The position numbers were made by a program, and so were the translations under genes. 64,000 nt of DNA from a virus (taxonomy: Duplodnaviria > Caudoviricetes), in IMG/VR virus record IMGVR_UViG_3300042988_001200. One strand, given 5' to 3'. The notes under the pieces are model-generated. The model did no database searches. It was given only the letters and a program-made list of their open reading frames with translations, and was not told the DNA's origin. Of this stretch, positions 30,971-52,127 are shown in pieces (positions within the stretch are counted from its first letter, which is position 1; each line of letters begins with the position of its first letter).

Positions 30971-33900
30971 ATGTCTTCTTCTTCTCTTGATAGGTCTTTA
31001 AATTCTAGATATAATGAGGAGTCTTCTTTATCTAAGGCATTAAGAGACCCTGTTAGTATAGCACTAGCTGGAACTGCCGCTATGGGTGGTGTATTAGGAT
31101 CTATTAATTTCTTTAATAAAGTTAGAGATGATTATTATCATCCTTTTACTAGCTTCTTAAGAGATAGATTGAATGCTGATATTACACTAGAGGTTCCTTA
31201 TGACTATTACGATGAACCCTCAGCCTCCCGTTCAGAGAATACAACAAGAAAAACTAATAATCTAACAGAAATAGACCTTACTCCTACTCCTTCTTCCTCT
31301 GGTGATGTACCAGAGACTAATATCTTTATTAGGATAAATAATTGGATGACTGAGAGGAGACAGGAGCGTATGAATCAAAGATACGGTTCTAGTAATCCCG
31401 CACCTAATACTTCTAGCACCCCCTCTAGACCTACATCTAATACTAATACTCCAGCACCTAAACCCTCAATACCTCAGCCCATAACTCCTCCCCCAACTAA
31501 TCCCTCTTATTCAATACCAGACCCTTGGCTTGATACTTCAACTAGTAATACTCCCCCTACTAGACCTTCTATTGTTCCTGCTTCTGTTAATTCCCCATCT
31601 ACTCCAGTTAATAAAACTGTTCTTCCTTCTAATTCTGGAGTATCTATTAATCCTCCATCTATCTCTAGAGCAGCTCCTAGTGTACAGGTTAATAATGTTA
31701 TCCCTAATAAAAGACCGTTAAATCTTAATTCATTACCTCCTTCTAATAAGGTAATGGGTAGTATAGGTATAGCCGCTCTTAGTTATATAGGGTTAGGGGT
31801 TCTATTAAGGGGGCCTGATTATTTATCTTATACCTCTAGTGGGTTTACTAGTTTCCTAGGAGGATTAACTACAAATAATCCATATAAGGATGTAATACTA
31901 CCAGGGGGTCATAGAGTTATTCCTAGTCTATCTAATAGAACTCTTATGAGTAACTCTAGGTCTGATACTTTTATAGATGGTTATAAAGTAATGGATATAT
32001 CCATACCCTCTGGAGCTGACTCTAAGAATAAATCTATAGAGACTAACTACCTTCCAGAGGTACTAGCAGCAACTATAGGTATATCCTTTGGGGTAGGGGT
32101 TGATGTAGGGATGTCTAAGTTATCTAAGAGTATGGCTAATAGGTCTAACACCTTTAGACATGTATTTGATAGAGATAGAACAGGGACTTTTAGTAAGAAC
32201 TTCTCTCCTTTACTTTTAGGAGCTATAGCTGGAGCAGCTATATCAGATAACTCTATAGAAGATAAAGTACAGGGCACTTACCTAGGAGCTATGGGAGGAG
32301 GATTTATAGGGTTCCTAGGTATGAAAGAAGAGATAGGTCCCATGCTTAATAAAAGATTAGGTCTAGGTCTAATGGGTGGGGCTCTAGGTCTATTAATAGG
32401 TTCTAAGATAAGTGCTTCTAAAGAATCTAATAAAGTCACTTCTTATAGTATTAACAAAGGAGGAGAGTTAAGAGTTACTTATGATAACTTACAGGAGCTA
32501 ATAAAAGAAGATAAAGCTACATTACCCTATGACTTCTATAAACATCCAGAGGCTAATAAGTTAGTAGAGGCTTATCTAATAAGTAATCAAAGGGGTTTTA
32601 GAGGTATAGAAGATACAGGTAATTATGCAGATAGACATTTAATTTATCAGGTAAATAAAGATAAGCATGGATATAATACTCAAATAGGTAAGTTAAATAT
32701 TAAGTTGGATATAACTGTTCCTAGTTATTCAAAAGAGGAGGGGTTTATTAGAGTTAGTCAAGAGGAGGTTAGAAAGAAGTATTCTATTAAGGATACTGAT
32801 TCTATTGATAGAGCTAATGGTTTATTTAATGCTTATCAGATAGGTTTATTTATACCTTCTATGACCTTCTTTACTATAGGGACTATAGCAGAGGTTAAGA
32901 ATAAACCCGGGGTTAAGAAGATAGTAGATTTTATTACTAACTATACAGATAAGGTTAAGTATCTATGGCCAGGAGAAAGAGCTATAGGTGAGGGTATACA
33001 GGAGATAGGGCAGGGGAGTACAGCCTTTCTTACTAGAGGCTATTCTAGAGGACTTAATAGAGGTATAAGGAAACTAGGGGAGGGCATTAAGTATAAAGTT
33101 ATAGGTGAATCCCTTAGTTTAGCTAAGAAGACATTTATCTATGCTATACCTGTATCTATAATCTCCTCTATGTTTGGAAATATAGACAGAGATAATAATC
33201 AGAATATAGAGGTCTATAGTAAAGAGGTGTCTCACTATGAAGCTATAGAGACTATAATGCCAAAGGCTACAGGTAATAAGAATATAGACTCTAGAGTTAA
33301 TCTTCAGACTTATATGGAGGAGGGTACAGCCTATAAGTTAGGGGATGTTATTATCTATGATTCGGGCACTATAGGCCAAGGATTAAGGAACTTTCTAGAG
33401 ACAGCTCCAGATAAATCTGTTAAAGCTCTTTTATATAAGCTAGGACATGAACAGGGGTTACAAGAGGTAATAAGTAGAAAGGCTGCTATAGGGGGTATAG
33501 GTATAAGTGGTGGGGACAATATAGATACCTTTTCCTTTTGGGATGAGATAGGAAAAGGATTTCAAGGAGAGGGGTCATGGGCACAGGTTTTTAGTTATCC
33601 TTTAAGAGCTAGTAAACATGAATCATTAGGAGCTGGTATAGCTTCAATAACCAGTCCTATAGTAGGAGGGTTGTATAACAATCTAGCTACTAACCTAGGC
33701 TTTGACCCTATATATAACTATAAGTTTGATAAAGATGTTTACTCTCCATTAGCTCATTCTCTAAATACTCTTACTTATGGTGGGTTGGGAGCAGCAATAG
33801 GTATAGGGATACATTCATATGTAGGGGGAGCAGGTAGGATACCTATGAGGGGTAAAGGGAGATTCGTAGGAGGGTTAATAGGAGGGCTTATAGGTGTAGC

Positions 33901-36900
33901 TCTAGGAGCCACTCAACCTACATATATAGACTCTGGATTCTATGATTCCTTAAGTAAACAAACACAGTTATCCTTTGGGGTATTTAAAGAGAGTAGTGCC
34001 CATAAAGCTCTTACTAAAAAAGATTCTTCTATAGGAGACTTAGTATTAGGGGCTGGACTAACTGCTGGACTACCAGCATTGGTAGGTGTGGCTCTACCAA
34101 TGAAAGGGAGAGTTAATAGAGGTATATTCCTAGGGATAGTTGGTTATACCACTGGTATGATTATATCTACTATGACAGGTAATGGTGTATTACCATCTAC
34201 CTTACCTATGTCTAGAAGGTTCTTAACCAATGAGTATGACCTTAGTAATCAAACCTTTAGTGTTTTACCAGGGGCTAGAAGGGGTAGTGGTAAACAACAG
34301 TTATCCCATATTCACTCTAAGACCTTATGGAGTAGGGAAGAGGTGTTTATATCTACAGGTAACTTAGATTCTGTATGGAAGAATATATATGGAGATGAGT
34401 CCCAGTTTAATATAGCTGTTAGGGTTAAAGGAGATACAGCTAAGAAGCTAATACCTCAATTAGATATTCTCCATGAGTTTATGAAGAAAGCTACTCCAGA
34501 TTCTAACCTTTCTTCTATAGTAGACCAGATACCTGATTTGATACTAGGGGGGCAAGGTTCTAAATCTAATGAGAAGATATTAGAGTTTATTCAATCAGCT
34601 AAAGGGGATTTATGGATATCTGCTCCATATCTAGCAGGATTAAGTAGAGATGTAAGACCTTTAGTAGAAGCTATTAAAGCTCTAGAGGCTAAGGGACAAA
34701 ATGTTCATCTTATAGCTCAGAACCCTAGAGGAGTGTCTGCTGGGGGCCAACCAGAGATGTCTATAGCTTTACAAAGAGAGTTATTAGCCTCTGGAATAGA
34801 TGTATACACCACTCCATATACTAATACCACCCTAACCCATGCTAAGTTATTAGCTGATGATGTAAAGACCTTTATAACTAGCCATAACCTATTCTCTGGT
34901 AACTCTATGAATAAGGTAGTAGAGGTAGGTATAGTTCTAGAGGGGGAGGAATATGCTAAGGCTACTAAACAGGCAGCCCTTAGATTTATGATAAAGAATA
35001 ACTTCTCTAATATTAAAGATAGTCCTCAATTCTCTCCAGAGGTATCTAAAGGATTTAGAGGGGTAGAAAGAGTAAAGGCCCTAGATATAAACCCTCAGTT
35101 TGCTGGTCTATTTGACCACCATTCAGGCTATCTCCTTCTTAACTCTCAAATGGGAGCATCCTTTTTCTACTCTAGAGCTCTATATAATAATCTCCAACGT
35201 CAAGCAGGTTTCTATCATAGGATTATAGATGAAGAGTTTGGTCCAGCTACTAGCTTATTTAAAATAGCTTATCTAGCTCACATAAATAAGAACACTAATA
35301 CTCCTTTAAGTACGGACTTATCGTATATCCCCTACTTTGTTAGTCAATATGATAAAGAGTTACAGACTCAGGGGGTAGGTGGGGTATTTAATGAGTTTGT
35401 ATCCATGAGGTTAGGGATGGGTAGGATGTATAAAGATGAGTATGGGTTTATAGGTTCTATAGCTGGTTCTATAGGGGCTATTCTAGATAGAACTTACCTA
35501 TTCTTCCAGGGAGGTAATATAGTGGGAGTTCATAGTAACTATGATGATGTAGATAACAAGGATATGAAGTATAAGAATAGAATGTTTCAAGAGGGGACCT
35601 TTGAAGCATTATTTACTTATCTAGCTGTTACTGCTGAATCTGCTGTAGCTTCTATAGCCTTATATATCTCATTAGGAGAACCTATTAATTTATTAATAGG
35701 AGAGGGTTTTAAGACATCTACAGAGAACTTTATTAGAGATGCTATTAAAGAAGAAGATTTCCTATCCCCTTCATCTAGACTTAAAAGAGCCTCTAACCTA
35801 GGGTTATATGACTCTCAGAGTTCTATACAAGCTAGACTATCTTTATTCTCTTCTATTACATCAGGGGAGGAGTATTTCTCTGTATCTAACTTTAAGTTAA
35901 CTCCTTATCATGTAAGCAACTTCTTCCTTAGAGAAAGGTCCTACCATCTACAAAGAGAGGTATTAGAACCCTTCTTACTAGAGAAGATAAACCCCTATGA
36001 GAGATTTGAAAGGTCTCAACAAGGTTTTAGAGCGGTTATTAATAAGTTTATAGAAGAGATAAGAACCCCTCCAGAGATTAGATTAGTAGCTTCAGAATCT
36101 AATCTAGAAACTATATCTAAACTAGTAAAACAACAGAAGGAGATAAGTGAACACTTAAGTTCTATAGGGGTTAATAAAAAGCTAGTAGATGTAATTATTT
36201 CAGAGGCTATAGGTTATAAGGAAGTAAGGAGTCAATTAGCCTCTGCTCTAAATCTAGATCCTAATGCCTCCTTAGATGAAATAGTTAACACTCTTAAAGG
36301 ATTTAACTCCTCCTCTTATTTAGATGGTGTACTTCCATCTATACAAACTAGAAATAAACTAGGTACTTATACTTATACAGAAGAGGGTAAGTTAATATCA
36401 GGAGTTAATTTAGAGATAGGTAATGTAGGTGTAGAGAGAGCTACTAGGATAGCAAGAGCTGTACAGGATATATTAGATGAGATACCTCTTAATCCTATAC
36501 ATTGGAAGGTCTTTAATAGTAATAGTGTGGCTTCTTTATTAGGAGTAAAGGAAGGGGGTTATCAGAGAGTGGTTAATAGAACTAACTTTACTGTTATATC
36601 TAAGGTAGCTACTATAGGGGATATCCTATCCTTTACAGATTTAACTCAAACTATGTCAGAGATTATGTTTGGTAAAGGAGGGATATCTGCCTTCATAGCC
36701 GCTAATGAAATATATAGTACAGAAATAGATAAGAGTATAGCTAGACATTCAGTAGATAGGATTCATACTATATGGAATATGACAGCAGGAGCTGCTTATA
36801 GAGCTTCCTCTAGAGCATGGTCTAGATATAAGTTAGTTATGGGATTACCCTTTCAGACTGGATTAATGAAGGCTAGTGAGTCATTAAAGGCTATGGAGTT

Positions 36901-39900
36901 TAATCTATTTAATAAGATAGGGGATGATGGATTAAGAGGTATAACCTGGGGAGATGATGCAGCTATTATCTCTAAGAGAATAGAGGATTTAACTAAAGAG
37001 GCTAAAGCTATATGGGAACAGTCTATACAGTCTGGTGAGTATGAACGTATATCTAAATATGTATCAAGTCTAGACCAAAGAGGGTTTATAGCTGAGTATA
37101 TAGCAGAACAATTACAACCTCATGTGGATCCATTAGCCAGAAGAATTAATTATATAGATGAATCAGTAGTATCTGCATTACATCAAGTAGATGAGGTTCA
37201 TCAGGCTCTATCTAATAACCCTAGAATGGCAGGTACTTTCCTTATGGAGATGCAAGAGCATTTAAGGAAAGAAACTATGGATATGTTTGTTACTGCTACT
37301 ATGAGTGGTTCTAATCTACAGAAACGTCTTATTAAACTTAGACCAGGGGACCCCTATGGTCTAGCCTCTAAGAAGAAGATGGCTTCTGTAGCTATGTCTT
37401 TATTAGGTATAGGAACTATATTCCTAGAACAACTCTTTACTAATACTCAGGGAGTAAGTATATTTACTCAGGTAGCCACAGCTCTTACATTTAGTAGATA
37501 TAGTGATAAAGAAAGTGGTGTATCTACTACATTTACTAATAGTGCTTTCCTACCTGGTTCTGGTGTATCTAGATATATAACTAATATAGGGGTTAATATA
37601 GGGGTCCTTGGTCTATCTCATATAATAGGTTCTTCTATATTAAGGGCTCAGGCTCTAGATTACACCTTTGATAATGACTTGTTATATAGACATATAGATG
37701 AGACTAGGGGAGCTTCTATTAACATAAGACTCAAACATCTAGATGCTAATGGAGATGAGGTAATAGAGCTTGTATCTGATTTAATAGATGATTGGAAGAC
37801 AGAGGGTGTAGAGTCTGGAGCTGACCTTATTAAGAGATTAAAGGGGTTAGTTAATGAGGGTTACTCCCTTCAATACGCGGTTACTAAAGGAGCTTCCACT
37901 AAGTACCTATCAGCTTTTGTAGAAGGTAAATATCTAAAGACTAGGGCTATTAGATTTGTAGGTAATACATGGTTTAACACTGCTGTAACATATGCTGTAT
38001 TAACAATGGCTATAAAAGGGGTTAAAGGGGGTATAGCTTCTACTCTTAATACTCTTAGAGATACTACTGGAACCATAGACCCTATTCTATTTGGAGGTAT
38101 AGGTATGGGTATTGGAGCTATAAAAGGGGGATTTAGAGGAGGTCTAGCTGGATTAGCTGTAGGGGTATTTAGCTCTTTTATAATGAATAGTCTAGGGGTT
38201 AAACTTCTTAATATTGGAGGTAAAGGAGTTAAAGTAGATAATTTAGAGACTGGTATTTTATCAGAACTATCTAACTTTAGACATTATGTTATGGCTAATC
38301 TAGGAGATGCTAGTAGAGCAGAACTAATGGCAGCTCTATGGTCTAGAAATATGGAGTCTGCCTATTCTATTCTCTATAAAGAGCCTTCTGGTACAACCTC
38401 TAATGTATTAGCTAAACAAATAACCTTTCCAGTATTCCAATTCTTCTTTACTAGTAAGGTAATAGGAGAACAAATAAATAATGAAGGGATAATAACCAAT
38501 CCTGGGCAGATATATTATAGTACAGGGATTCAGGGTCCTCCTATAAGTGGTATATCCTTCTCTTTTGGTCTTCCTTTTAAGATAGTAAAGGGAAAGGGGG
38601 TGTTTGGTACAGGTATTGCCTATAATGAAGAGGCTAATGTTATGGATTATATTCATAGTGTTAGCTACACCTCTTTATATCTAGGAGCTAATAGTCTAGC
38701 TCTTGGGACTTTATATAAAGTAAGTAACTCATTAAAGAGTAAATCAGCTATTAAGGAAGTAGGAGTTCTAGAAATGTTAGCTAAGATGTCTAAGGGTACT
38801 GCTCAATTAGTAGATGATGTTTTAATGACTCCCGTAGAGTTTGGATATAGAGTAGTAACCTCTCTAGCTACAGTGGATATTCGTAATGCTTTCTCTGTAG
38901 CTTATAAGGAACAAGATAAGGCTGCTCAATTAGGTACTTTAAGAAAACCTGTAGGGGGTATAGGAGCTCTAGCATTAAAGACTTTACTAGGGTTATATAT
39001 AGGGGGTCAGATAGGAAGTTTATATCAAGGTATAGTCTCTAAGGATACTATTGAGTATCAAGATAAAGTGTCTTCTGCTATAGATGTAGGGGCTCTTATA
39101 GGTGGGGGTCTAGCAGTTGGTCATCATTTTATATACCCTAAGATATATCCGCATATACAGGGTAAGTTATTTAAATACAACTCTTTACCTAGACTCCCTA
39201 GATATATACCAGCTCTAGCTATAGGAATAGGAGTAGGCACTCTTATGGCTAATAGTAGCTATGGATTAAGTAGTGGTATGGATTTCCATGAGGATGAACT
39301 TAGTTTCACTAAATATGCAATTACTGCTGTAGGTTATGGAACAGTATTAGGAACTGTAGCCTATAAGGTGGGTAATATAGGATTAACAATGGCAGATACT
39401 CTCCAGAAGTATGTAGATTTAGATAGTAGGTTAGAGATGGCTACTGTTAAGAGTACAACTGGTAGTGGGTTAAATAGGATGGTTAATAAGGCTAAGAAGT
39501 TCTACTACTCCTTATTTATAGATAATGCCCAGAAGGAAGCTCAGATGGTAGTAGATACTATTAAACATAACCAGCAGGAGATAGATGTTAGATATAACCA
39601 AGTAAAGGGGGTAAAGGGAGAAACAGTAGCAGATACTTTACCAGATGGTTATGCTCGTAAAGCTGTAGAACTTATAGATAATAATACAGATGTTAAGTTT
39701 CTTATTCACTCTAGTGAGAACAAAGAGATTCTTAATAATATTAATAAAGCTAAGGGTTCGTTCTTAGAGTCTAGATTTCATAAAAGGATATTTCCTCATA
39801 GAGTTAAGAGAACAGTAGGTGGGATGATAGCTCTTGGAATAGGATTATCTATATTAATGGGAGGTAATGAGGGTCAGTTCTATGATTATATAGAGGGAGC

Positions 39901-42900
39901 TTCTCCTGATCAATCTAAGGTTAGAGCTTCAATGGGTAAGATGCAGGCTGTATTCAGGTCTTCTCTAGCAGATATATTTAGGTTAATAACAGGTAGAGAT
40001 AAGAAGCTAATGAGTCCTAACCAACTTAATAATGTCTTTAGGTCAGCATCTGAGTATACAGGTATAGACTATAAAGTTCAATATGAGAAGTTATTAAAGA
40101 CTAGACCAGACCTTATTAATTCTATTAATAGTAGTATTAATGGTTTCTCTCAATTAATGGTATTTGATAGCCCTAATGCTTTTATATCTATAGGGGTTAT
40201 AGGAGGAGCATTTAGAAGAAGTGAGTATGGTAACATCTTAACTCCTTATATTCAGATTCAAGGTACAGGGGCTGATATAAGTACAGCTTCCTACCAAATG
40301 GTCTCTAGGTTCTATTTCAACTCTGTTATAGGTGGAGCTAATAATCTCTACTTTGATATTATGAATGCTGTAAAGATAAGTAATCAGGCATTAAAAGCTG
40401 GTCAACCTATGTCTAAATTTATATCTAGACAGATAGCTATTAACCTTCTTAGTGTTACAGCTAAACAACAACCTCTACAGAAGAGGAGGAAGGTCTCTAT
40501 GTTAAATGAAGAGACTATATCAGCCCTATCTTCTGATAGCCTTCTAGGAGCCATATTAAAACATAGGGTTAATATTACTAAGAACCTTAGCTATCAACCA
40601 CCCCTCTCTTTAGCTACTAGACTTTTATTAAATAATGTAGAGACTAATCCTCAAATAGCTAATCCTGTACTTCTATATTTACTTTCTCCTGATACTTTAA
40701 AGGAACTAGGTTTAAATATTGACTCTACTGTATTTGAGTTGTTATCTAAGGACCCCTTCTTCTTATTATCTAAGTCCTTTGTTATTAATGGTATTAACTC
40801 TTTTGCTCTTAATAGAGATGCTGTAGGTAATTACCTTAAAGGTATATTCTTCCCAGCTCAGATACCTATGGACCATCAAGATATATGGAAGGGTGGGGAT
40901 TCCTCCTATATCTCCTCCTATTATCAACATGAAGGAGACATAGGCTTTGCTATTATGCAGGCTAGTAGAACCAATCCTATCCTTCAATTATTAGGTAATT
41001 TAACTAGAGGAGTTCCTAGTTCTATTAAGGCCCTAGGAGCTGGAGTCATATTTGCTTCTTTATTAGGGGTTATAACCTTTAATCTAGGGAGAAAGGGTCT
41101 AGCTATAGAAGATAGAGCTTTATATAAGGAGATAAATGAATACTTTCTATCTGGATGGTTTAAACAAAGTAGAGAGGCAGAGGGGTTTGCATGGACCTTT
41201 AGAACCTCTTATCCCTTAGTAGGTAAGAAGGCTAGTCTAAAGGTTAGTGGAGAGAACTATTCTATTATCTATAAGGGGGCATACCAGTTTGTTATTAATA
41301 ATAGGATAGGTAATAGTGTAGGTATAAGTAGACTATTAGCTAAAGTACAGGAGGACCTGTATGGAATAATTACTGAATCCTTTGGGGCTGAATATGATGA
41401 TAAAGGGGTGATGACTAAGAAAGGTACTAATCTAGCAGACTGGTTTTTATCTAGTAATAAACAAAAGGAGTTAATCCAGGCCATTGAGTCTATAGATAAA
41501 CCTACTAAGGCTGATTCTTTAACCATCACTCATTTAGATGAGAATGGTAACTCTACGGATAAAGTCTTTACAGTAGAAACAGATAAACCTATACTAGATA
41601 ATCTTAATAACCTTAAACACTTTGAGGATTCATTAGGAGAATTAGATGAGGCTCAGTCCGCTCTATTAATTGAGTTTAGAAGTAAACAGACATCATTATA
41701 TGAGAAATCACTTAGACCCTCTACTTTAGTAAAGAATATAACAGATGTTTTTATGAAGGATATGGAAGATTTAGTAGATAGATACATAGACACCCTTATT
41801 GATAATAGGATAAGAGTTAATGAGAACTATCTATTAAATTTACCTCAATTAGATAATGAAACTAAATCTATAAGTGAAATATTTGATTCATATCAAGACC
41901 CTAATAGTAGATATAAGGGGATAGTTAAATATGTAGATTCCTTTGGAGATGTAACTAGATGGACAGAAGTATCCTTTATAACTATACTTAACCCTAATAT
42001 GGGACTACAGGATATGATGGAAATTAGTTATCTATTAAAGAATAAGGATACAAGACCCGAGGGTTTAACTAGATTAGTAGCTGGAATGAGTGCAGAACAA
42101 AAAGCTCTTTATACTGTAAATATAGATGGGAAGGCTACTGTAGATATCCATAAGGCCCTTAAAGAACAAGCTAGGGTGGCCATTAGTGATGCTGTGGAGC
42201 AGTATATATCCCAGTTCCCAGGGTCAACAGAGGAAGCAAAGAAGGCTCTTCTAAAGCATTTCCAAGGTACTAATCCTAGACTAGATAATATGACTATAGA
42301 AGTTCTAGGGGGTTTAATTGGATTAAAGAAGGATAAAGATGCTTCCTTCTTTTCTTTACTTAGACATCATTGGGCTGGATTAGGAACTACACCTACTGCT
42401 GATGTAACTAGAGGTCTCTCTACAACTATGAGACGTATGGTTAATTTTATTAGAGGTAAATCTTCTATACCAGATGCTGATGAGACAGGGGTAGTATCTA
42501 CTACTAAGACAGACCCTTATCTAATCGGTAAGTCTAATAATAGTCCTATACCTATGGGGATAATGACTGAATCAGGAGATGAGGTTATTAATAGAGTTCT
42601 AGTAGCTCAAGATATGGCTAGAGCTGATGTAGGATTTGGTAATAAGATAGGTAAGGGCTTTGGTATATTACTAGAGTTCTTAGGCTTTGGAGTAGATGTA
42701 GTAGAGGGTGTATCTACTATGGCCGCCTTCTCTAGATTAGGTCATGCTTATACATCTGAGACATATACAGAAGCTCAGATTATGAATGAGGCTATGTACG
42801 CTGGTACTACCCTAGTTAACTCTGCTTTATCTATACTTATTCTAGGAGCTGCTTCTTATGCAGCTAATGTATTTGCAGCAGGGACTTTAGCTGCTTTTAT

Positions 42901-44143
42901 AGCTCCATTGGTTATTATAGGTGTAGCTTCATTAGCAGGCTTTGCCTTTAATAAATGGGCTCCAGACTCTATTAAGAGTAAAGTTCATGGAGGGTTTAAT
43001 AAACTATATGAAGGGGCAGCTAAGATGCTTAAAGGTGGTGGAGATTTCTTTAGAGATAAGTTTGGTAAAAGAGCTGCATCAGCATTCTCTCATGCTGTAG
43101 GTGGCATAATGATGGGGGGAATGATAGTAGCATCTCTAGGTACTATCTCATCTATCAGTGCTTTAGTAGGGTTAGGTACAGCTATATCTATGCCTGCTCT
43201 AGGCAGCTTCTTATTAGCAGGGGCAGCTATAGGTGGTGTAACAGCAGCAGCTATAGGGTTTCTTAATCCTGGTTTATTAGATAAAACTCTAGGTCCTATG
43301 GTAGAGTCCTTAAGTAATGTAAGGATAGGTAATGTTCCTTTAGGACGTTTATTTGTTATAAGACCAGACCAGTGGTTATATGAGTTTATGAAGACAGGAG
43401 ACCCTATAACTGGAGTAGATAAATATGGAGCTCCTATTAAAGCTATAACTGCTAATGATTTAATTAAACAAGATTATGCTGCTCAATTACTAGCTGCTGA
43501 TGATTATACCGGCTCTAGTGCTGCTTCTTTATTTATCCACCAAGGGATGTATGGAACTTATAACACTAATAACTCAATAGATAAATATGGAAAGGTAAGT
43601 ATAATAAGGCCCCCTTCTATACTTTCTCCCTTTATTCAAAAGGAGATTAAATATAGAGGTCAACTCTTTAATCAATCTATTGTAGGTAGATATGTATGGA
43701 ATACTCTACTAGCTAATAGTTCTAACCAAAGGCATGTAAGAAAGGTTATGGAATCTCCTATACTTAAACCCTCTACTAATGCTCTTAAACAAATAAGTAT
43801 TGATGCAGCTAGACATGCACAAGTAAAACAGTTCCAATCTAAGTCTGTGACCTTATTATCTAAGTCCTTTACTATCAGAAATATACCTATACTAGCCTCT
43901 ATAATTGATAAGTTTAATGATGCTAAAGCTAAGTTACAGGCTAAGATAGCTTACGCTAAATTACCCATCAGGGCTATATTTAGATTAGATAATATAACAA
44001 GTTCTGATAGAGAATATAAAAAGGATTTAAGATTAGCTCCAATGGAAGTAGCAGCTATTGTAGATGGTAATATTATAAGGAAGGTTACAACCTCTGAATC
44101 AGAGATTAAAGAGGAAGTTTTTAATAATATTAATTACAGTTAA
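30971..44143 (+). CDS. Giant (4390 aa) tape-measure/ejection-like protein with glycine-rich hydrophobic segments and a phospholipase D-superfamily module
   Basis: Pro/Ser/Thr linker (about aa 105-250) and many G-x3-G hydrophobic segments. PLD motifs: HSKTLWSREEVFISTGNL (His codon 34313) and HAKLLADDVKTFITSHNL (His codon 34838), plus ILEFIQSAKGDLWISAPYL. Confidence 0.75.
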   Translation: MSSSSLDRSLNSRYNEESSLSKALRDPVSIALAGTAAMGGVLGSINFFNKVRDDYYHPFTSFLRDRLNADITLEVPYDYYDEPSASRSENTTRKTNNLTEIDLTPTPSSSGDVPETNIFIRINNWMTERRQERMNQRYGSSNPAPNTSSTPSRPTSNTNTPAPKPSIPQPITPPPTNPSYSIPDPWLDTSTSNTPPTRPSIVPASVNSPSTPVNKTVLPSNSGVSINPPSISRAAPSVQVNNVIPNKRPLNLNSLPPSNKVMGSIGIAALSYIGLGVLLRGPDYLSYTSSGFTSFLGGLTTNNPYKDVILPGGHRVIPSLSNRTLMSNSRSDTFIDGYKVMDISIPSGADSKNKSIETNYLPEVLAATIGISFGVGVDVGMSKLSKSMANRSNTFRHVFDRDRTGTFSKNFSPLLLGAIAGAAISDNSIEDKVQGTYLGAMGGGFIGFLGMKEEIGPMLNKRLGLGLMGGALGLLIGSKISASKESNKVTSYSINKGGELRVTYDNLQELIKEDKATLPYDFYKHPEANKLVEAYLISNQRGFRGIEDTGNYADRHLIYQVNKDKHGYNTQIGKLNIKLDITVPSYSKEEGFIRVSQEEVRKKYSIKDTDSIDRANGLFNAYQIGLFIPSMTFFTIGTIAEVKNKPGVKKIVDFITNYTDKVKYLWPGERAIGEGIQEIGQGSTAFLTRGYSRGLNRGIRKLGEGIKYKVIGESLSLAKKTFIYAIPVSIISSMFGNIDRDNNQNIEVYSKEVSHYEAIETIMPKATGNKNIDSRVNLQTYMEEGTAYKLGDVIIYDSGTIGQGLRNFLETAPDKSVKALLYKLGHEQGLQEVISRKAAIGGIGISGGDNIDTFSFWDEIGKGFQGEGSWAQVFSYPLRASKHESLGAGIASITSPIVGGLYNNLATNLGFDPIYNYKFDKDVYSPLAHSLNTLTYGGLGAAIGIGIHSYVGGAGRIPMRGKGRFVGGLIGGLIGVALGATQPTYIDSGFYDSLSKQTQLSFGVFKESSAHKALTKKDSSIGDLVLGAGLTAGLPALVGVALPMKGRVNRGIFLGIVGYTTGMIISTMTGNGVLPSTLPMSRRFLTNEYDLSNQTFSVLPGARRGSGKQQLSHIHSKTLWSREEVFISTGNLDSVWKNIYGDESQFNIAVRVKGDTAKKLIPQLDILHEFMKKATPDSNLSSIVDQIPDLILGGQGSKSNEKILEFIQSAKGDLWISAPYLAGLSRDVRPLVEAIKALEAKGQNVHLIAQNPRGVSAGGQPEMSIALQRELLASGIDVYTTPYTNTTLTHAKLLADDVKTFITSHNLFSGNSMNKVVEVGIVLEGEEYAKATKQAALRFMIKNNFSNIKDSPQFSPEVSKGFRGVERVKALDINPQFAGLFDHHSGYLLLNSQMGASFFYSRALYNNLQRQAGFYHRIIDEEFGPATSLFKIAYLAHINKNTNTPLSTDLSYIPYFVSQYDKELQTQGVGGVFNEFVSMRLGMGRMYKDEYGFIGSIAGSIGAILDRTYLFFQGGNIVGVHSNYDDVDNKDMKYKNRMFQEGTFEALFTYLAVTAESAVASIALYISLGEPINLLIGEGFKTSTENFIRDAIKEEDFLSPSSRLKRASNLGLYDSQSSIQARLSLFSSITSGEEYFSVSNFKLTPYHVSNFFLRERSYHLQREVLEPFLLEKINPYERFERSQQGFRAVINKFIEEIRTPPEIRLVASESNLETISKLVKQQKEISEHLSSIGVNKKLVDVIISEAIGYKEVRSQLASALNLDPNASLDEIVNTLKGFNSSSYLDGVLPSIQTRNKLGTYTYTEEGKLISGVNLEIGNVGVERATRIARAVQDILDEIPLNPIHWKVFNSNSVASLLGVKEGGYQRVVNRTNFTVISKVATIGDILSFTDLTQTMSEIMFGKGGISAFIAANEIYSTEIDKSIARHSVDRIHTIWNMTAGAAYRASSRAWSRYKLVMGLPFQTGLMKASESLKAMEFNLFNKIGDDGLRGITWGDDAAIISKRIEDLTKEAKAIWEQSIQSGEYERISKYVSSLDQRGFIAEYIAEQLQPHVDPLARRINYIDESVVSALHQVDEVHQALSNNPRMAGTFLMEMQEHLRKETMDMFVTATMSGSNLQKRLIKLRPGDPYGLASKKKMASVAMSLLGIGTIFLEQLFTNTQGVSIFTQVATALTFSRYSDKESGVSTTFTNSAFLPGSGVSRYITNIGVNIGVLGLSHIIGSSILRAQALDYTFDNDLLYRHIDETRGASINIRLKHLDANGDEVIELVSDLIDDWKTEGVESGADLIKRLKGLVNEGYSLQYAVTKGASTKYLSAFVEGKYLKTRAIRFVGNTWFNTAVTYAVLTMAIKGVKGGIASTLNTLRDTTGTIDPILFGGIGMGIGAIKGGFRGGLAGLAVGVFSSFIMNSLGVKLLNIGGKGVKVDNLETGILSELSNFRHYVMANLGDASRAELMAALWSRNMESAYSILYKEPSGTTSNVLAKQITFPVFQFFFTSKVIGEQINNEGIITNPGQIYYSTGIQGPPISGISFSFGLPFKIVKGKGVFGTGIAYNEEANVMDYIHSVSYTSLYLGANSLALGTLYKVSNSLKSKSAIKEVGVLEMLAKMSKGTAQLVDDVLMTPVEFGYRVVTSLATVDIRNAFSVAYKEQDKAAQLGTLRKPVGGIGALALKTLLGLYIGGQIGSLYQGIVSKDTIEYQDKVSSAIDVGALIGGGLAVGHHFIYPKIYPHIQGKLFKYNSLPRLPRYIPALAIGIGVGTLMANSSYGLSSGMDFHEDELSFTKYAITAVGYGTVLGTVAYKVGNIGLTMADTLQKYVDLDSRLEMATVKSTTGSGLNRMVNKAKKFYYSLFIDNAQKEAQMVVDTIKHNQQEIDVRYNQVKGVKGETVADTLPDGYARKAVELIDNNTDVKFLIHSSENKEILNNINKAKGSFLESRFHKRIFPHRVKRTVGGMIALGIGLSILMGGNEGQFYDYIEGASPDQSKVRASMGKMQAVFRSSLADIFRLITGRDKKLMSPNQLNNVFRSASEYTGIDYKVQYEKLLKTRPDLINSINSSINGFSQLMVFDSPNAFISIGVIGGAFRRSEYGNILTPYIQIQGTGADISTASYQMVSRFYFNSVIGGANNLYFDIMNAVKISNQALKAGQPMSKFISRQIAINLLSVTAKQQPLQKRRKVSMLNEETISALSSDSLLGAILKHRVNITKNLSYQPPLSLATRLLLNNVETNPQIANPVLLYLLSPDTLKELGLNIDSTVFELLSKDPFFLLSKSFVINGINSFALNRDAVGNYLKGIFFPAQIPMDHQDIWKGGDSSYISSYYQHEGDIGFAIMQASRTNPILQLLGNLTRGVPSSIKALGAGVIFASLLGVITFNLGRKGLAIEDRALYKEINEYFLSGWFKQSREAEGFAWTFRTSYPLVGKKASLKVSGENYSIIYKGAYQFVINNRIGNSVGISRLLAKVQEDLYGIITESFGAEYDDKGVMTKKGTNLADWFLSSNKQKELIQAIESIDKPTKADSLTITHLDENGNSTDKVFTVETDKPILDNLNNLKHFEDSLGELDEAQSALLIEFRSKQTSLYEKSLRPSTLVKNITDVFMKDMEDLVDRYIDTLIDNRIRVNENYLLNLPQLDNETKSISEIFDSYQDPNSRYKGIVKYVDSFGDVTRWTEVSFITILNPNMGLQDMMEISYLLKNKDTRPEGLTRLVAGMSAEQKALYTVNIDGKATVDIHKALKEQARVAISDAVEQYISQFPGSTEEAKKALLKHFQGTNPRLDNMTIEVLGGLIGLKKDKDASFFSLLRHHWAGLGTTPTADVTRGLSTTMRRMVNFIRGKSSIPDADETGVVSTTKTDPYLIGKSNNSPIPMGIMTESGDEVINRVLVAQDMARADVGFGNKIGKGFGILLEFLGFGVDVVEGVSTMAAFSRLGHAYTSETYTEAQIMNEAMYAGTTLVNSALSILILGAASYAANVFAAGTLAAFIAPLVIIGVASLAGFAFNKWAPDSIKSKVHGGFNKLYEGAAKMLKGGGDFFRDKFGKRAASAFSHAVGGIMMGGMIVASLGTISSISALVGLGTAISMPALGSFLLAGAAIGGVTAAAIGFLNPGLLDKTLGPMVESLSNVRIGNVPLGRLFVIRPDQWLYEFMKTGDPITGVDKYGAPIKAITANDLIKQDYAAQLLAADDYTGSSAASLFIHQGMYGTYNTNNSIDKYGKVSIIRPPSILSPFIQKEIKYRGQLFNQSIVGRYVWNTLLANSSNQRHVRKVMESPILKPSTNALKQISIDAARHAQVKQFQSKSVTLLSKSFTIRNIPILASIIDKFNDAKAKLQAKIAYAKLPIRAIFRLDNITSSDREYKKDLRLAPMEVAAIVDGNIIRKVTTSESEIKEEVFNNINYS

Positions 44144-47946: not shown

Positions 47947-49233
47947 TTAGTAATTAAATACCTTTATAACATAATCAATTGTAGATAAATCTTTAAGAAT
48001 AGATATTTGAGAGAATGATTCTTTACCTCTACCTGTTTTAGATATTAGAGTAAGGATAGTTTGATGGTAAGATATATCCTCCCCATGATTAGATATAAGG
48101 TAATCAATAATATCTATAGCTTCTTCATATATTTGATTCTTTATAGTAGAGGGGTCTATATTATTTTTAATACAGTATAAAAGAGTGTCATTTATATCTT
48201 TACCATATTCTAAGGGTGGGGTCCATATAGATACCTTAGAGTCTATAAGACTTAGTTGTAAATCTATAACTTGAGGAATTAGAACTCTCCAACTTTTATA
48301 TTGATTAGGGAAATACTCATGGTCTGATGGGAACTTATCATTATCCCCAATAACAAGAATATGTTTAAAGTCTTTAATCTTAGACGTATGCTTTAGTAGA
48401 TTGCTAAGACCTAATATACCTACAGAGGGTAAACCCATTTGAGCTAGAGAACAAGTATCGGGAGCCCCCTCAGCTATAACTATAGTAGGATGAATAGATT
48501 TATAAACATTAAGTTTCTCCTCTAGAAAGAGAAAGGAAGTTATAGGCGGTACTAGAGAACTAAGAGTGGCCTTATACTTAGAGATTAAATCCTTTTTATC
48601 CTCTGGTATAGGTAGAATGTATCTTCCTTGAAGGTGTACAAATCTATTACAGTTATCCTTTATAGGAAAGATGATTCTATTAGAGAAGAACTCTCTATCA
48701 GTTATAGGATTATATAAACCTTCTCTTTCTAGGTCTATAGATTTAAAACCCCTACTTCTTAATAAAGCTCCATAAGAAGGAGCATAACCTAATTCCCAAT
48801 TTCTTATATTTCTTTCAGTAAAGCCTCTTTCTTTTAGATAATTAATAGCTTTATTATTACTATTCCAGAGTTCTTGTTGATATATATACATAATCTGTTT
48901 TAGAAACTCACTTCTTTCGTTTAATCTATTAGAGTGACCTTCATAATCTAAGGAAGATATTAATTCAGATATAGCTTGAGAAAAAGAACAATTATGAATA
49001 ATACAGTATATATCTATAACATCTAGAGACTTTCTTTTATCTTTAATATATTTATAAGAAGGACAAGAAGTAGAATAGCACCATCCATATTGATTATTTA
49101 TAGTTCTCCATTTCTTTATTTTATTACAAAAAGGACAGGTGGATGTCCCTTCTTTATTTACTTTTATTAAAGAGTCAATACTAATATTAGATTTGATTAA
49201 ATCAACCTTTGTTTGTAGAGAAGTAGATATCAC
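47947..49233 (-). CDS. dnaG: DnaG-type DNA primase
   Basis: Zn-binding CPFC...CYSTSC, YLKERG...LGYAP, NRIIFPI, TOPRIM IAEGAPD, GDND and KDIND. Confidence 0.9.
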   Translation of the reverse strand: MISTSLQTKVDLIKSNISIDSLIKVNKEGTSTCPFCNKIKKWRTINNQYGWCYSTSCPSYKYIKDKRKSLDVIDIYCIIHNCSFSQAISELISSLDYEGHSNRLNERSEFLKQIMYIYQQELWNSNNKAINYLKERGFTERNIRNWELGYAPSYGALLRSRGFKSIDLEREGLYNPITDREFFSNRIIFPIKDNCNRFVHLQGRYILPIPEDKKDLISKYKATLSSLVPPITSFLFLEEKLNVYKSIHPTIVIAEGAPDTCSLAQMGLPSVGILGLSNLLKHTSKIKDFKHILVIGDNDKFPSDHEYFPNQYKSWRVLIPQVIDLQLSLIDSKVSIWTPPLEYGKDINDTLLYCIKNNIDPSTIKNQIYEEAIDIIDYLISNHGEDISYHQTILTLISKTGRGKESFSQISILKDLSTIDYVIKVFNY

Positions 49234-49236
49234 AGT

Positions 49237-49707
49237 TTATTTACCTTCTTCTATTCTTATAGATGGTATAGGATTATCTTTTTTTTGTTCAAATAAAAGC
49301 TCAAAACCTCCTAATATTGAAGATAAGATCATAATAAATATTACAGAAACATAAAGAGCCACTTCTTTATAATCTGTTAATAATTTAAATAAAGCTAGTA
49401 TAACATTAGGTTTATCACTATTATTAATAATAAGGGGTAGGGCTCTTTCTTTGGATTCATTTAAATCTTCTTTAAGAGAAGTAAGTCTAGTTTCTGTTTT
49501 AAAAGTTAGAGTTTCATATTTTCTTTCTAGTTCTATTAAACTATTTTTTAGTTCTTCTTTCTTTTCTATTGAATCCTTTAGAAATAATTCTATCTCTTGA
49601 ATTTTTGATTTGAGGGTTTTAATCTCCATAAATAAAACGATAAAACTTATTTCTGGAGTTTTATTCTTTAATAAGTCTTCTATATTTATGTAATCATCGT
49701 TATTCAT
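49237..49707 (-). CDS. Coiled-coil protein with a C-terminal transmembrane helix
   Basis: Heptad-rich central region, then the hydrophobic VALYVSVIFIMILSSILGGFELLF; 8-nt overlap with the response regulator stop. Confidence 0.6.
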   Translation of the reverse strand: MNNDDYINIEDLLKNKTPEISFIVLFMEIKTLKSKIQEIELFLKDSIEKKEELKNSLIELERKYETLTFKTETRLTSLKEDLNESKERALPLIINNSDKPNVILALFKLLTDYKEVALYVSVIFIMILSSILGGFELLFEQKKDNPIPSIRIEEGK

Positions 49708-50218
49708 TTTTCCTTATTATAGATTTTATATGGCATTTAAAATCTTTTATAAAGCTGGGTAGTCCTTTAAAAAAAGGACTACTACAACCTTTAATAAATT
49801 CTAATCTTGCTATACTTTTATTTATAGATTCTTTTAGAATTAATTTATTATTCATTAATGTTTCTTTATTTATATAATCTTGACATCCTAATTCTAGACA
49901 AATATCTCTATGAATATCATTGTTATATCCCGATACAACTATAATAATAATATCCTTAATCCTCCCTTGTAGAAAGAGTAATAGATTATATATAACAATT
50001 AACGGGTAGGATTCTAAATTATTAGAGTTAGGAGCTATATGAAAATCTTTTATATCTAAGTCTGTAATGATGATATCTACTACATTATTATTAAGAATAT
50101 CTATAGCTCCTCTCAAGGAAGTTGCTGAAAAGAGAGTAAAATCTTTTAGTAAATACTTCTCTATTTCCAGGTCATCTTCATTATCTTCTATAATTAATAC
50201 TTTTTTATTCTTTCTCAT
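49700..50218 (-). CDS. Response regulator (receiver domain with short helical tail)
   Basis: KVLIIEDN acidic pocket, phosphoacceptor IIITD, VVSG (Ser/Thr) and DYINK (conserved Lys). Confidence 0.85.
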   Translation of the reverse strand: MRKNKKVLIIEDNEDDLEIEKYLLKDFTLFSATSLRGAIDILNNNVVDIIITDLDIKDFHIAPNSNNLESYPLIVIYNLLLFLQGRIKDIIIIVVSGYNNDIHRDICLELGCQDYINKETLMNNKLILKESINKSIARLEFIKGCSSPFFKGLPSFIKDFKCHIKSIIRKNE

Positions 50219-50841
50219 AAGGTTATTTGAATACTAAACTCCCCTTTTTCATTAATGAAACTTATAGTTCCCTTTATTATTTCTACTATAAAACTAACTA
50301 TATATAGCCCTAGACCTACACCTTCTGTATTTAAATCTTCCTTTTTAAAGGGTTTAGATAGATAAATATTAAAGGATTTATCTATCTTTTTATTATTACT
50401 TTTGTAATCTATATAGAGCTTATCCTTTACTTTATAAGTATTAATACTTATAACAGTAACTTGTTCCTCTTTAAATTTAAAGCTGTTATCTATTAGTTGT
50501 TCTATTAGAAGTTGAAATAATAGATAATCACTTTTAATAATAAAAGAATTAATATTTAATTTATATAGTTGATTATATTTATAAAGAGTTTCATTAACAA
50601 TATCTTTAATATTAAACTCTTTATAAATAACTATGTGTTCTTTTATTTTATTAACAACTTCTAGTTGAGTTATATATCTTTTTATTCTATTGTTATTAAA
50701 CTCTATCTTATGAATAAAAGCATCTCTTTCTTCACTGATTATACTTTTATTTCTTAATATATATAAATTATTATTTATATTTCTATATATTTGATTAAGA
50801 GTATGAAGAGATAGAAAAGTAAAGTCTGTTGGTTCTATCAT
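50215..50841 (-). CDS. Sensorless, degenerate histidine kinase core (DHp-like plus HATPase_c)
   Basis: H-box-like FLSLHTL, N-box QLIDNSFKF, F-box KPF and G2 box GVGLGLYIV; G1 (DxGxG) is replaced by SNNKKI. Confidence 0.75.
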   Translation of the reverse strand: MIEPTDFTFLSLHTLNQIYRNINNNLYILRNKSIISEERDAFIHKIEFNNNRIKRYITQLEVVNKIKEHIVIYKEFNIKDIVNETLYKYNQLYKLNINSFIIKSDYLLFQLLIEQLIDNSFKFKEEQVTVISINTYKVKDKLYIDYKSNNKKIDKSFNIYLSKPFKKEDLNTEGVGLGLYIVSFIVEIIKGTISFINEKGEFSIQITL

Positions 50842-50857
50842 TGATTTAAATAATAAA

Positions 50858-50885
50858 TTATAGGTAGAGTAGTCTCTACCTATAA
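50858..50885 (-). terminator. Rho-independent terminator-like hairpin after the helicase gene
   Basis: 12-bp perfect stem TTATAGGTAGAG/CTCTACCTATAA with a 4-nt loop, followed on the - strand by TTTATTATTT. Confidence 0.65.
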
Positions 50886-50901
50886 CATTATAGATATAAT
50901 A

Positions 50902-52068
50902 TTAAGCCCATTGAGAGTAGATAGGGTCAATATAGTTAGACCTAATAAACTCCTTTTTAGTGCCTACAAATCTAAGGAGAGATGGACTCTTTACTCTAGA
51001 TAAGATTACATATAAAGCTCCATGAAGCCTTCTTAAGAAGTAGTCTCCTAGTTTACATTGAAGAGTAGAGTCTAGAGTAAGACCTTGGCAAGCATGTACT
51101 GTAAGAGCATATGCCGGTTTAAGTGGTAGATACTCTACTGAACCTACTATACCTAAAGGAGTTTCATTATAAATAGTTTTATATTCAATATCTACTTCAG
51201 CTCCAATAGATAGTTTCACTTTTACATAATCTTTAGCTAGTTTAATTACAGTCCCTATAGAACCATTAGAGTAACCCTCCTTTAGATTATTAGTCATAAT
51301 AATAACCTTACAGTTAGGTTTTAGATATAACTCTTTAGGTATCTTAGAGGAAACAGGAGGAGGATTCCCCTTAGTGTAATAAGTATACTTAGTAAATCTT
51401 CCTTTAAGTTCTAGTAGTTTCTGATAGTTATAGCTATGGACATCAGCATTCTTAGAAAATATAGTAGTTCCCTCAATACTAGAATCTAACTCTTTATGGA
51501 AAGCTCCTATCTCCTCTAACCAATCAGCACACTCTGTAGCTTCACCCATTCTTATCTTATTAAGTAGTTCGATAAAAGTGGGGTCTGATTGTCTATGTAC
51601 TGTAGATAACTTTTCTATTGTAAATCTAGACCAATTAACACTCTTAAAGGCTGGTAGTACAGGATAATCCTCTTTACCAGTAACTACTATAGGTAGTTGT
51701 AGGAAGTCTCCTACTAGAGTTAGACCCAGGGGTTTATTAGATATATCGTTATTAAAGTTATCTAAAGCCGCTAAGATTAAATCTAGTTGAATAGCGTTTA
51801 GCATAGATACTTCATCTATACAAATACCATCATATCCCTTAGATATATATCTAAGATTTTTATTAATAGCTCCAGTCTGTACTTTCTTAGATAAATCTTC
51901 TACATCAAAGAAACCTAAAATACTATTAATAGTCTTGCCATTACCTAATAAAGCAGCAGAACCTGTAGTAGCAGTTCTATATAAACAACTAGGGTTTTCC
52001 TCTAGAAGTTTATTTATATGAGTGCTTTTACCACTCCCAGCAGGACCTACTATAACTTTAAATTCCAT
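50902..52068 (-). CDS. SF1B PIF1/RecD-like helicase
   Basis: GPAGSGKS, IDEVSM, VGDFLQLP, HRQ, AYALTVHACQG and LYVILSRV. Confidence 0.9.
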   Translation of the reverse strand: MEFKVIVGPAGSGKSTHINKLLEENPSCLYRTATTGSAALLGNGKTINSILGFFDVEDLSKKVQTGAINKNLRYISKGYDGICIDEVSMLNAIQLDLILAALDNFNNDISNKPLGLTLVGDFLQLPIVVTGKEDYPVLPAFKSVNWSRFTIEKLSTVHRQSDPTFIELLNKIRMGEATECADWLEEIGAFHKELDSSIEGTTIFSKNADVHSYNYQKLLELKGRFTKYTYYTKGNPPPVSSKIPKELYLKPNCKVIIMTNNLKEGYSNGSIGTVIKLAKDYVKVKLSIGAEVDIEYKTIYNETPLGIVGSVEYLPLKPAYALTVHACQGLTLDSTLQCKLGDYFLRRLHGALYVILSRVKSPSLLRFVGTKKEFIRSNYIDPIYSQWA

Positions 52069-52097: not shown

Positions 52098-52127
52098 TAT
52101 CCTCCTTCCATTACTAGAAGGAGGATA
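52098..52127 (-). terminator. Hairpin (11-bp stem), probable terminator or processing site
   Basis: TATCCTCCTTC-cattacta-GAAGGAGGATA, between the putative SSB stop and the helicase start. Confidence 0.55.

Follow-up and report, generated by a model that had tools for sequence, protein, structure and literature searches.

Introduction

Bacteria sense their environment mainly through two-component systems, and those borne by phages have hardly been studied. The agr cassette of Clostridioides phage phiCDHM1 combines an AgrC-type membrane kinase with AgrB and AgrD and has no regulator (PMC3901668), and the Aravind-group survey of jumbo phages mentions no more than a divergent receiver, which is tied to NAD processing and has never turned up in a two-component system. 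Microcoleus phage My-WqHQDG carries four overlapping genes between its helicase and primase genes, on the strand opposite to both (GenBank OR578706.1; WOL31350-WOL31353); the preprint describing this phage makes no mention of a kinase, a receiver or a two-component system. Here we analyse a cassette of three overlapping genes that occupies the orthologous helicase-primase slot in the IMG/VR virus record IMGVR_UViG_3300042988_001200 (171.9 kb, ~89% complete). The window, i.e. the whole stretch of DNA that was analysed, comprises 64,000 nucleotides (nt) and is part of this record, in agreement with the virus origin assigned by a first-pass annotation of the same DNA.

The locus amounts to a natural experiment: the same three-gene module is present in two related phages, one with a complete kinase and one in which the predicted ATP site is erased, and a relative in GenBank carries a version with a full sensor. 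A three-way comparison could reveal how a phospho-switch of its own benefits a virus, and whether a kinase can turn into a phosphatase, a transferase or a decoy inside one.

Results

The cassette encodes a kinase-derived core, a receiver and a putative membrane protein

The three open reading frames (ORFs) and the key sites within the first two are listed below; positions are those of the window.

50215-50841, minus strand: kinase-like ORF (HK, for histidine kinase), 208 amino acids (aa), from the ORF call
50803-50805, minus strand: codon of His13, the predicted phospho-acceptor of HK
50386-50400, minus strand: degenerate G1 box of HK, residues 148-152, with S-N-N-K-K in place of D-x-G-x-G, from the alignment of 150 kinases and the comparison with the relative
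49700-50218, minus strand: receiver ORF (RR, for response regulator), 172 aa, from the ORF call
50060-50062, minus strand: codon of Asp53, the predicted phospho-acceptor of RR
49237-49707, minus strand: third ORF, 156 aa, from the ORF call

HK and RR overlap by 4 nt, and RR and the third gene by 8 nt. The first-pass annotation had described three overlapping genes between a helicase and a primase gene: a sensorless kinase that has lost G1 and retains a His as well as the N, F and G2 boxes, a catalytically complete receiver, and a third, coiled-coil membrane protein. Its coordinates, overlaps and features all proved correct, and its reading of a real cassette with coupled translation of the genes is supported.

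The kinase-derived core has lost its G1 box

The HATPase_c match of the HK protein scores 34.0 bits against a Pfam gathering score of 26.4 (36.4 bits in the genome search). The AlphaFold2 (AF2) model built from a 57-sequence alignment has a pLDDT of 91.7 and a pTM of 0.85, and lays the protein out as a DHp helical hairpin (residues 4-67; helices 4-29 and 36-67, pLDDT >90) followed by an alpha/beta CA/HATPase_c domain (residues 73-208). Foldseek ranks WalK/YycG, HK853 and CusS (catalytic cores; E 1e-13) as the best matches to this model, and the pseudokinases DivL (4q20) and RetS (6dk7) are also among the matches. Since the longest possible ORF is 208 aa (228 codons from stop to stop), there is no room for a sensor, a linker or a membrane segment, and the kinase is indeed sensorless.

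Motif columns were read from an alignment of the best 150 proteins retrieved by an exhaustive profile search of 1.84 billion representatives. His13 falls in the phospho-His column, which holds H in 147 of the 150, and in the 57-sequence alignment it lies in an invariant His column. The N box is represented by N119, a residue found in all 150 kinases, the F box by F165 and the G2 box by G174, G176 and G178. At the three G1 positions the window has S148, N150 and K152 where the canonical D, G and G are present in 147, 147 and 148 of the 150, respectively, and no other protein of the set has all three positions altered. The nearest relative of the cassette (described below) has an intact G1 box, DSGIG, indicating that the loss is a trait of this phage and not of the cassette. 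Around the altered pentapeptide the lid sequence is near-identical in the window and the relative (IDKSF, PFK-ED and G-GLGL). In all GHKL ATPases the G1 Asp binds adenine N6, and the G1 glycines serve as hinges of the ATP lid.

Two trivial origins of the altered G1 box were rejected. Multiple base substitutions account for the change, which speaks against a frameshift. The stretch also recurs in contigs of two other studies (three runs), three of them free of differences and the fourth with one difference of unplaced position, which speaks against an assembly error.

The DHp half departs from the norm as well. Pfam HisKA (PF00512) gave no match at E <= 1 for HK of either the window or the relative, whereas it is present in eight of the nine nearest homologues scanned. 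The residue that follows the phospho-acceptor (H+1) is D or E in 125 of the 150 kinases, and in its place the window has Thr and the relative Phe; the H+4 residue is Gln in both phages and in only one other of the 150. HisKA kinases use the H+1 acid for autophosphorylation, and the same residue is implicated in phosphatase activity. We refer to the product of the first gene as a kinase-derived core and do not call it a kinase: it has the class I fold and most of the boxes, and it fails on the HisKA model, the H+1 acid and G1.

The second gene encodes a single-domain receiver

The Response_reg match of RR scores 34.7 bits against a Pfam gathering score of 30.2. Its AF2 model (pLDDT 72, pTM 0.71) is a (beta-alpha)5 receiver with five strands and five helices, into which a poorly modelled insertion of ~15 residues is placed after beta3 (residues ~57-72), and which continues into a long alpha5 and a low-confidence C-terminal helix. 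The catalytic residues E11/D12, D53, S96 and K118 align to those of solved receivers, D53 at the phospho-Asp, and all are invariant in a seven-sequence alignment. No output domain was detected: Pfam yields no further domain, and past alpha5 the model contains the low-confidence helix only. The second gene is a single-domain receiver that displays every defining feature of one.

When HK and RR were predicted as a complex, the score was 0.33 against 0.01 for the best control, which gives weak support. A score of 0.33 or above is reached by 58 of 80 solved complexes and by 2 of 110 mismatched pairs, and scores of <=0.60 come from only 7 of the 80 plus both of the mismatches. The HK-RR runs agree in at least 75% of contacts, with a partner pLDDT of at least 72.

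The third protein has a single hydrophobic helix near its C-terminus

The 156-aa product of the third gene consists of a conserved N-terminal motif, a helical middle part, one hydrophobic helix (residues ~113-141, encoded at 49285-49371) and a short conserved tail. Its relatives share 46% and 41% identity with it. Pfam, PHROGs and NCBIfam gave matches at chance level only, and the ESM Atlas offered no family either, with a feature score of 0.87 that falls under the 0.9 line. The comparison with known phage membrane proteins (holins, spanins and others) likewise matched it to no Pfam, PHROG or NCBIfam family.

One freshwater metagenome run from another study (X9) contains a variant with 21 differences in 150 bases at 49222-49371, the 3' end of the third gene, which suggests a further diverged strain.

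A diverged relative shares the cassette, which evolves faster than its flanks

Word searches of 5.8 billion proteins returned no relative of HK besides itself and one relative of RR, at 53% identity. In the exhaustive HK profile search the window protein and its counterpart in this relative were the only ones below 1e-30, and the next-best match had an E of 5e-18. The relative receiver is encoded on contigs L002-L005 (one ENA assembly and three sequencing runs), on which the gene order is that of the window: the helicase is followed by a HATPase_c protein of 204 aa, a receiver of 173 aa, a protein of 164 aa and the primase, a synteny that holds in L002-L004. Co-occurrence of the three genes elsewhere had been set beforehand as a test of the first-pass annotation, and the diverged relative supplies it.

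Protein identities between the window and the relative, and the ratios of nonsynonymous to synonymous substitution rates (dN/dS; Nei-Gojobori method, with dS at 1.0-1.5 and so near saturation), are the following.

HK: 39% identity, dN/dS 0.39
RR: 53% identity, dN/dS 0.28
Third gene: 46% identity, dN/dS 0.39
Helicase: 69% identity, dN/dS 0.16
Primase: 70% identity, dN/dS 0.21

The cassette diverges faster than the helicase and primase that flank it, and its ratios of 0.28-0.39 indicate that the three genes are under purifying selection; the relaxed selection that the first-pass annotation had named as grounds for discarding its reading was not found.

A comparison at a shorter time scale is provided by a strain close to the relative (contigs L010 and L011, from independent assemblies). 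Against L003 it shows 97-100% identity in the primase and the three genes downstream of it (dS 0.03-0.14), whereas in the third gene identity is 69% with a dS of 0.59 and a dN/dS of 0.29. From this contrast it follows that the cassette is a local hot spot of divergence or recombination under purifying selection, and it looks like a strain-level hypervariable island. Both contigs end within the receiver tail, where they have a 5-nt deletion and a stop that would trim the receiver by ~25 residues. As for the window cassette itself, no disruption is seen in the fragments that two other studies provide (three runs), which span parts of each of the three genes.

In run X3, a single contig seems to join 49180 to 50638 and so to skip most of the cassette; with only 21 letters on one side, the join is probably spurious, a deletion variant being the less likely reading.

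The cassette lies between replication genes of a cyanophage lineage

The cassette is bordered by two replication genes, and a hairpin separates it from the first of them.

50902-52068, minus strand: Dda/PIF1-type helicase, upstream border of the slot (Pfam and PHROGs; 35% identity to the My-WqHQDG helicase, E 1e-62)
50857-50886, minus strand: terminator-like hairpin between the helicase stop and the HK start, with a 13-bp stem and a 4-nt loop followed by a T-rich run
47947-49233, minus strand: DnaG-type primase, downstream border of the slot (Pfam and PHROGs; 33% identity to the My-WqHQDG primase, E 2e-70)

The G+C content (GC) is 20.6% in HK, 24.1% in RR and 23.8% in the third gene, compared with 29.3% in the primase and 33.4% in the helicase. 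Both the A/T-richness of the cassette relative to its neighbours (20.6-24.1% against 29-33% GC) and the terminator-like hairpin after the helicase had been pointed out in the first-pass annotation, and both are confirmed: the hairpin, read from 50886 to 50857, has a folding energy of -18.1 kcal/mol (z = -3.8), a 13-bp stem and a T-rich tail. A TATAAT at 50862-50857 overlaps its 3' arm. In the relative, a hairpin of unlike sequence occupies the same position (L003 1721-1747) and is there followed by TATAAT, so that it is the position of the post-helicase hairpin, and not its sequence, that is conserved. The minus strand has a second perfect hairpin with a 13-bp stem, a 4-nt loop and a T-rich tail at 52098-52127. 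Hairpins with T-rich tails trail successive replication genes, and 8 terminator-like sites are present in 4.5 kb where 1.2 are expected. Elsewhere in the window, a giant ORF (30971-44143, plus strand) encodes 4390 aa; its counterpart on L010 has 4284 aa and a PLDc_2 domain.

The large terminase shares 48.7% identity with that of the Microcystis phage Ma-LMM01/MaMV group and 41.8% with that of My-WqHQDG, and the window stretch was found in metagenomes of freshwater, freshwater sediment and the subsurface. Outside the window, the record has a 116-codon frame with an NblA-like match (G000:C1:171030-171131) that reaches 22 bits against a cut-off of 25 and is consistent with a cyanophage. On account of the terminase, primase and helicase kinship, the sub-threshold NblA match and the metagenome habitats, we place the phage in a lineage of freshwater cyanophages. 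The primase is present in both Ma-LMM01 and the 252-kb relative G001, which have no receiver and no kinase cassette.

My-WqHQDG has a full-sensor version of the cassette in the same slot

In My-WqHQDG the slot is taken up by four genes (L020 1951-5041), annotated just as "hypothetical" and "response regulator receiver domain protein". We assign their products as follows.

Kinase, 545-569 aa: hydrophobic N-terminal segment resembling a membrane helix, PAS, HisKA and a complete HATPase_c with intact G1
First receiver, 138 aa
Second receiver, 174 aa
Fourth protein, 179 aa: helical/coiled-coil N-terminal part and one C-terminal hydrophobic helix

The cassette shares with that of the window its helicase-primase slot, an overlapping order of kinase, receiver(s) and a coiled-coil protein with a C-terminal transmembrane helix, and a GC below that of its flanks; its 174-aa receiver aligns with RR over the full length (hhalign probability 96.5%, E 9e-10). 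Short gene overlaps are retained in all three phages, i.e. that of the window, its relative and My-WqHQDG. The My-WqHQDG version differs in having a full PAS sensor kinase, two receivers and the opposite strand. The resemblance may be due to common descent with rapid divergence, or to repeated capture into one hot spot.

Related phage-borne kinases and receivers are rare

The first-pass annotation had stated that kinase-regulator pairs are rare in phages. In support of this, tblastn of HK and RR against 50,697 GenBank phage records gave no match. Such pairs are not unprecedented, as PHROGs families and My-WqHQDG attest: PHROGs holds several HK-like and receiver families (857, 10912, 731 and others), and the matching ones are labelled "unknown function" except for 10912 ("kinase"). 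Phrase searches of about 8.4 million papers and preprints found none that uses terms such as "phage-encoded histidine kinase" or deals with phage two-component systems. Scans of IMG/VR with HK, RR, the RR alignment and the second My-WqHQDG receiver yielded no close relatives, and a scan of metagenomes brought up only ordinary N-terminal receivers of large bacterial proteins, at 27-31% identity. No donor can be named, because the genome scan gave two chance Reinekea kinases alone (23-26% identity).

Matches to the My-WqHQDG kinase in GenBank "phage" entries, its own record aside, are mostly unannotated fragments or records with bacterial names or bacterial gene annotations. The nearest short soluble kinases have no viral context, with one lying amid bacterial genes and two on contigs of ~1.2-1.4 kb. 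NCBIfam has no equivalog for the cassette proteins. In PADLOC, which covers anti-phage two-component systems such as Detocs, HK had no match, RR had a weak match to the candidate PDC-M60B (E 1.7e-5, residues 3-65), and the cassette is assigned to no defence system.

Discussion

We read the cassette as an accessory island, derived from a two-component system, that evolves fast within the helicase-primase slot of freshwater cyanophages akin to Ma-LMM01 and My-WqHQDG. The function we favour, with a chance of being right that we put somewhat below even, is that of a selected, phage-owned phospho-signalling module, in which the kinase half would have given up ATP binding and would serve the receiver as a phosphatase, a phosphotransferase or a scaffold, with output by protein contact, probably at the membrane. 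Judging by its motifs, HK would hardly be able to bind ATP once the G1 Asp is gone, and would no longer be an autokinase. It probably still docks on RR, since the phospho-His, the Gln at H+4 and the conserved ATP lid and G2 box are kept and the gene is open and selected. Once docked, it could act as a phosphatase of RR, as a His-phosphotransferase of the ChpT/Spo0B kind or as a scaffold, and the phosphoryl groups could be supplied by host kinases or acetyl phosphate. RR would act through protein contact, in the manner of CheY and DivK. The tail-anchored protein is the obvious candidate for its partner, since such an architecture ends the cassette in all versions; the likeliest contact would thus be made with this co-translated coiled-coil protein, and the step of infection affected would be one that takes place at the membrane. 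The suggestions of the first-pass annotation that the cassette is a phosphatase, a phosphate sink or a decoy, and that the third protein is its membrane partner, are all plausible as hypotheses.

Several points weigh against the proposed module. The loss of ATP binding is deduced from motifs, and the H+1 acidic residue is missing from both the window and the relative core (Thr and Phe), which makes even a phosphatase role uncertain. The link from RR to the membrane protein is drawn from gene order, overlap and recurrent architecture. The weak HK-RR complex score could reflect memory of solved kinase-receiver complexes, and we do not use it as evidence of binding. No RNA run holding the window stretch was found. 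With two kinase sequences to compare, selection cannot be assigned to the window lineage itself, and the G1 change could be a first step of decay. As to ancestry, the My-WqHQDG kinase scores 26 bits against the profile of the window clade, a value to which biased amino-acid composition may contribute, whereas 148 cellular kinases score 63-82 bits; common descent of the window and My-WqHQDG kinases is not supported by these scores. Nor is any sequence similarity detectable between the third proteins of the window clade and the coiled-coil protein of My-WqHQDG.

A more far-reaching version of the proposal, which we offer as speculation and consider unlikely as a whole, is that a phage-owned phosphorelay, kept in a hypervariable slot of the replication module, was remodelled stepwise within the phages, from a membrane PAS sensor kinase with two receivers, through a bare core with one receiver, to an ATP-dead pseudokinase, with a new tail-anchored coiled-coil membrane protein as the constant end-point. 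Such a virus would read the phosphorylation state of its host (through host kinases or acetyl phosphate, and thus light, redox or nutrients) and let it govern an event at the membrane, for example the timing of lysis, the exclusion of superinfecting phages or motility that depends on pili.

The same features lend themselves to other explanations. An ATP-dead core with neither sensor nor G1, whose structural neighbours include the pseudokinases DivL and RetS, might work as a RetS-like decoy that pairs with a host kinase in mixed DHp dimers or ties up a host regulator, with the phage RR as a phosphate sink, so that a host pathway is silenced or rewired. The cassette outpaces its flanks in divergence at two time scales, as would be expected for a gene that interacts with the host; but the relative has all of the ATP-binding boxes, so that a decoy would not be the ancestral or general function, and no close host homologue that would suggest mimicry was found, the next-best E after the relative being 5e-18. 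We regard this explanation, too, as improbable. The complete kinases of the relative and My-WqHQDG would also fit a kinase-receiver pair that is still active, in which ATP would be bound despite the altered G1 and RR would be phosphorylated in a timed manner, either constitutively or with the membrane protein as a sensor in trans. Control of kinases by accessory membrane proteins has well-known examples (LiaF-LiaS, YycHI-WalK), and HK keeps the N, F and G2 boxes and the length of its ATP lid, the flanks of which are strongly conserved. Yet the G1 Asp, D in 147 of the 150 kinases, is essential for adenine binding across GHKL, both glycines are gone and the H+1 catalytic acid is absent, and we consider activity of this kind quite unlikely.

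A less purposeful history is that of a decaying passenger, i.e. acquired cargo that became dispensable in this phage, with the loss of G1 as its first lesion. The cassette has the lowest GC and the fastest divergence of the region, G1 is lost in this phage only, the strain near the relative has the 5-nt deletion and stop in the C-terminal tail of its receiver, and the distant relatives G001 and Ma-LMM01 do without receiver and kinase cassette. Decay sits poorly, however, with three intact ORFs and their preserved overlaps, with dN/dS values of 0.28-0.39 (including 0.29 in the unsaturated comparison), with the integrity of all other kinase and receiver motifs and with the undisrupted fragments from three runs of two other studies, and we hold it to be very unlikely. 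The alternative raised in the first-pass annotation, a transcriptional switch for the downstream primase and replication genes, has in its favour that the primase is the next gene downstream of the cassette and shares its strand, and that the cassette follows a terminator-like hairpin. Nevertheless, RR has no DNA- or RNA-binding domain, the My-WqHQDG cassette lies on the strand opposite both helicase and primase, and G001 and Ma-LMM01 keep the primase while having neither receiver nor kinase cassette; a role in gating the primase is thus disfavoured and seems to us scarcely credible.

The proposed phospho-signalling module could bear on how phages of bloom- and mat-forming cyanobacteria time infection to host physiology. 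A single phage lineage here offers a natural series made up of a full sensor kinase, a bare core and a core predicted to be ATP-dead, and with it a direct way to test a neglected question, namely what use phages make of two-component proteins of their own.

Compared with described systems, the window cassette resembles in architecture class I HisKA kinases that work with a single-domain receiver (Thermotoga HK853-RR468, PDB 3dge; WalK/YycG, 4u7o). It shares with them the DHp hairpin and CA fold (TM-scores 0.65-0.77), the His column, the N, F and G2 boxes and a receiver partner with the full catalytic set and no output domain. It differs in that HK has neither sensor nor linker, does not match Pfam HisKA and has a non-acidic H+1 residue and a replaced G1, and in that it is encoded by a phage together with a membrane protein. 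In common with phiCDHM1 agr, it includes a histidine kinase-type gene that is borne by a phage and presumed to target host signalling; unlike phiCDHM1, the window has a soluble HisKA-type core, a receiver of its own and no signal-synthesis genes. With the His-phosphotransferases ChpT and Spo0B and the pseudokinases DivL and RetS it has in common a DHp+CA-like architecture and a defective nucleotide site. HK nevertheless keeps its His (DivL has Tyr) as well as the N and G2 boxes, has no specific sequence relation to this group and gives no Pfam match at E <= 1 to the ChpT and Spo0B family models (HPTransfase PF10090, Spo0B). In the pairs DivL-DivK and ChpT-CpdR, as in the window, a kinase-like protein is matched with a single-domain receiver. 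By this analogy HK would work like a member of the group without being one, the resemblance being one of logic only.

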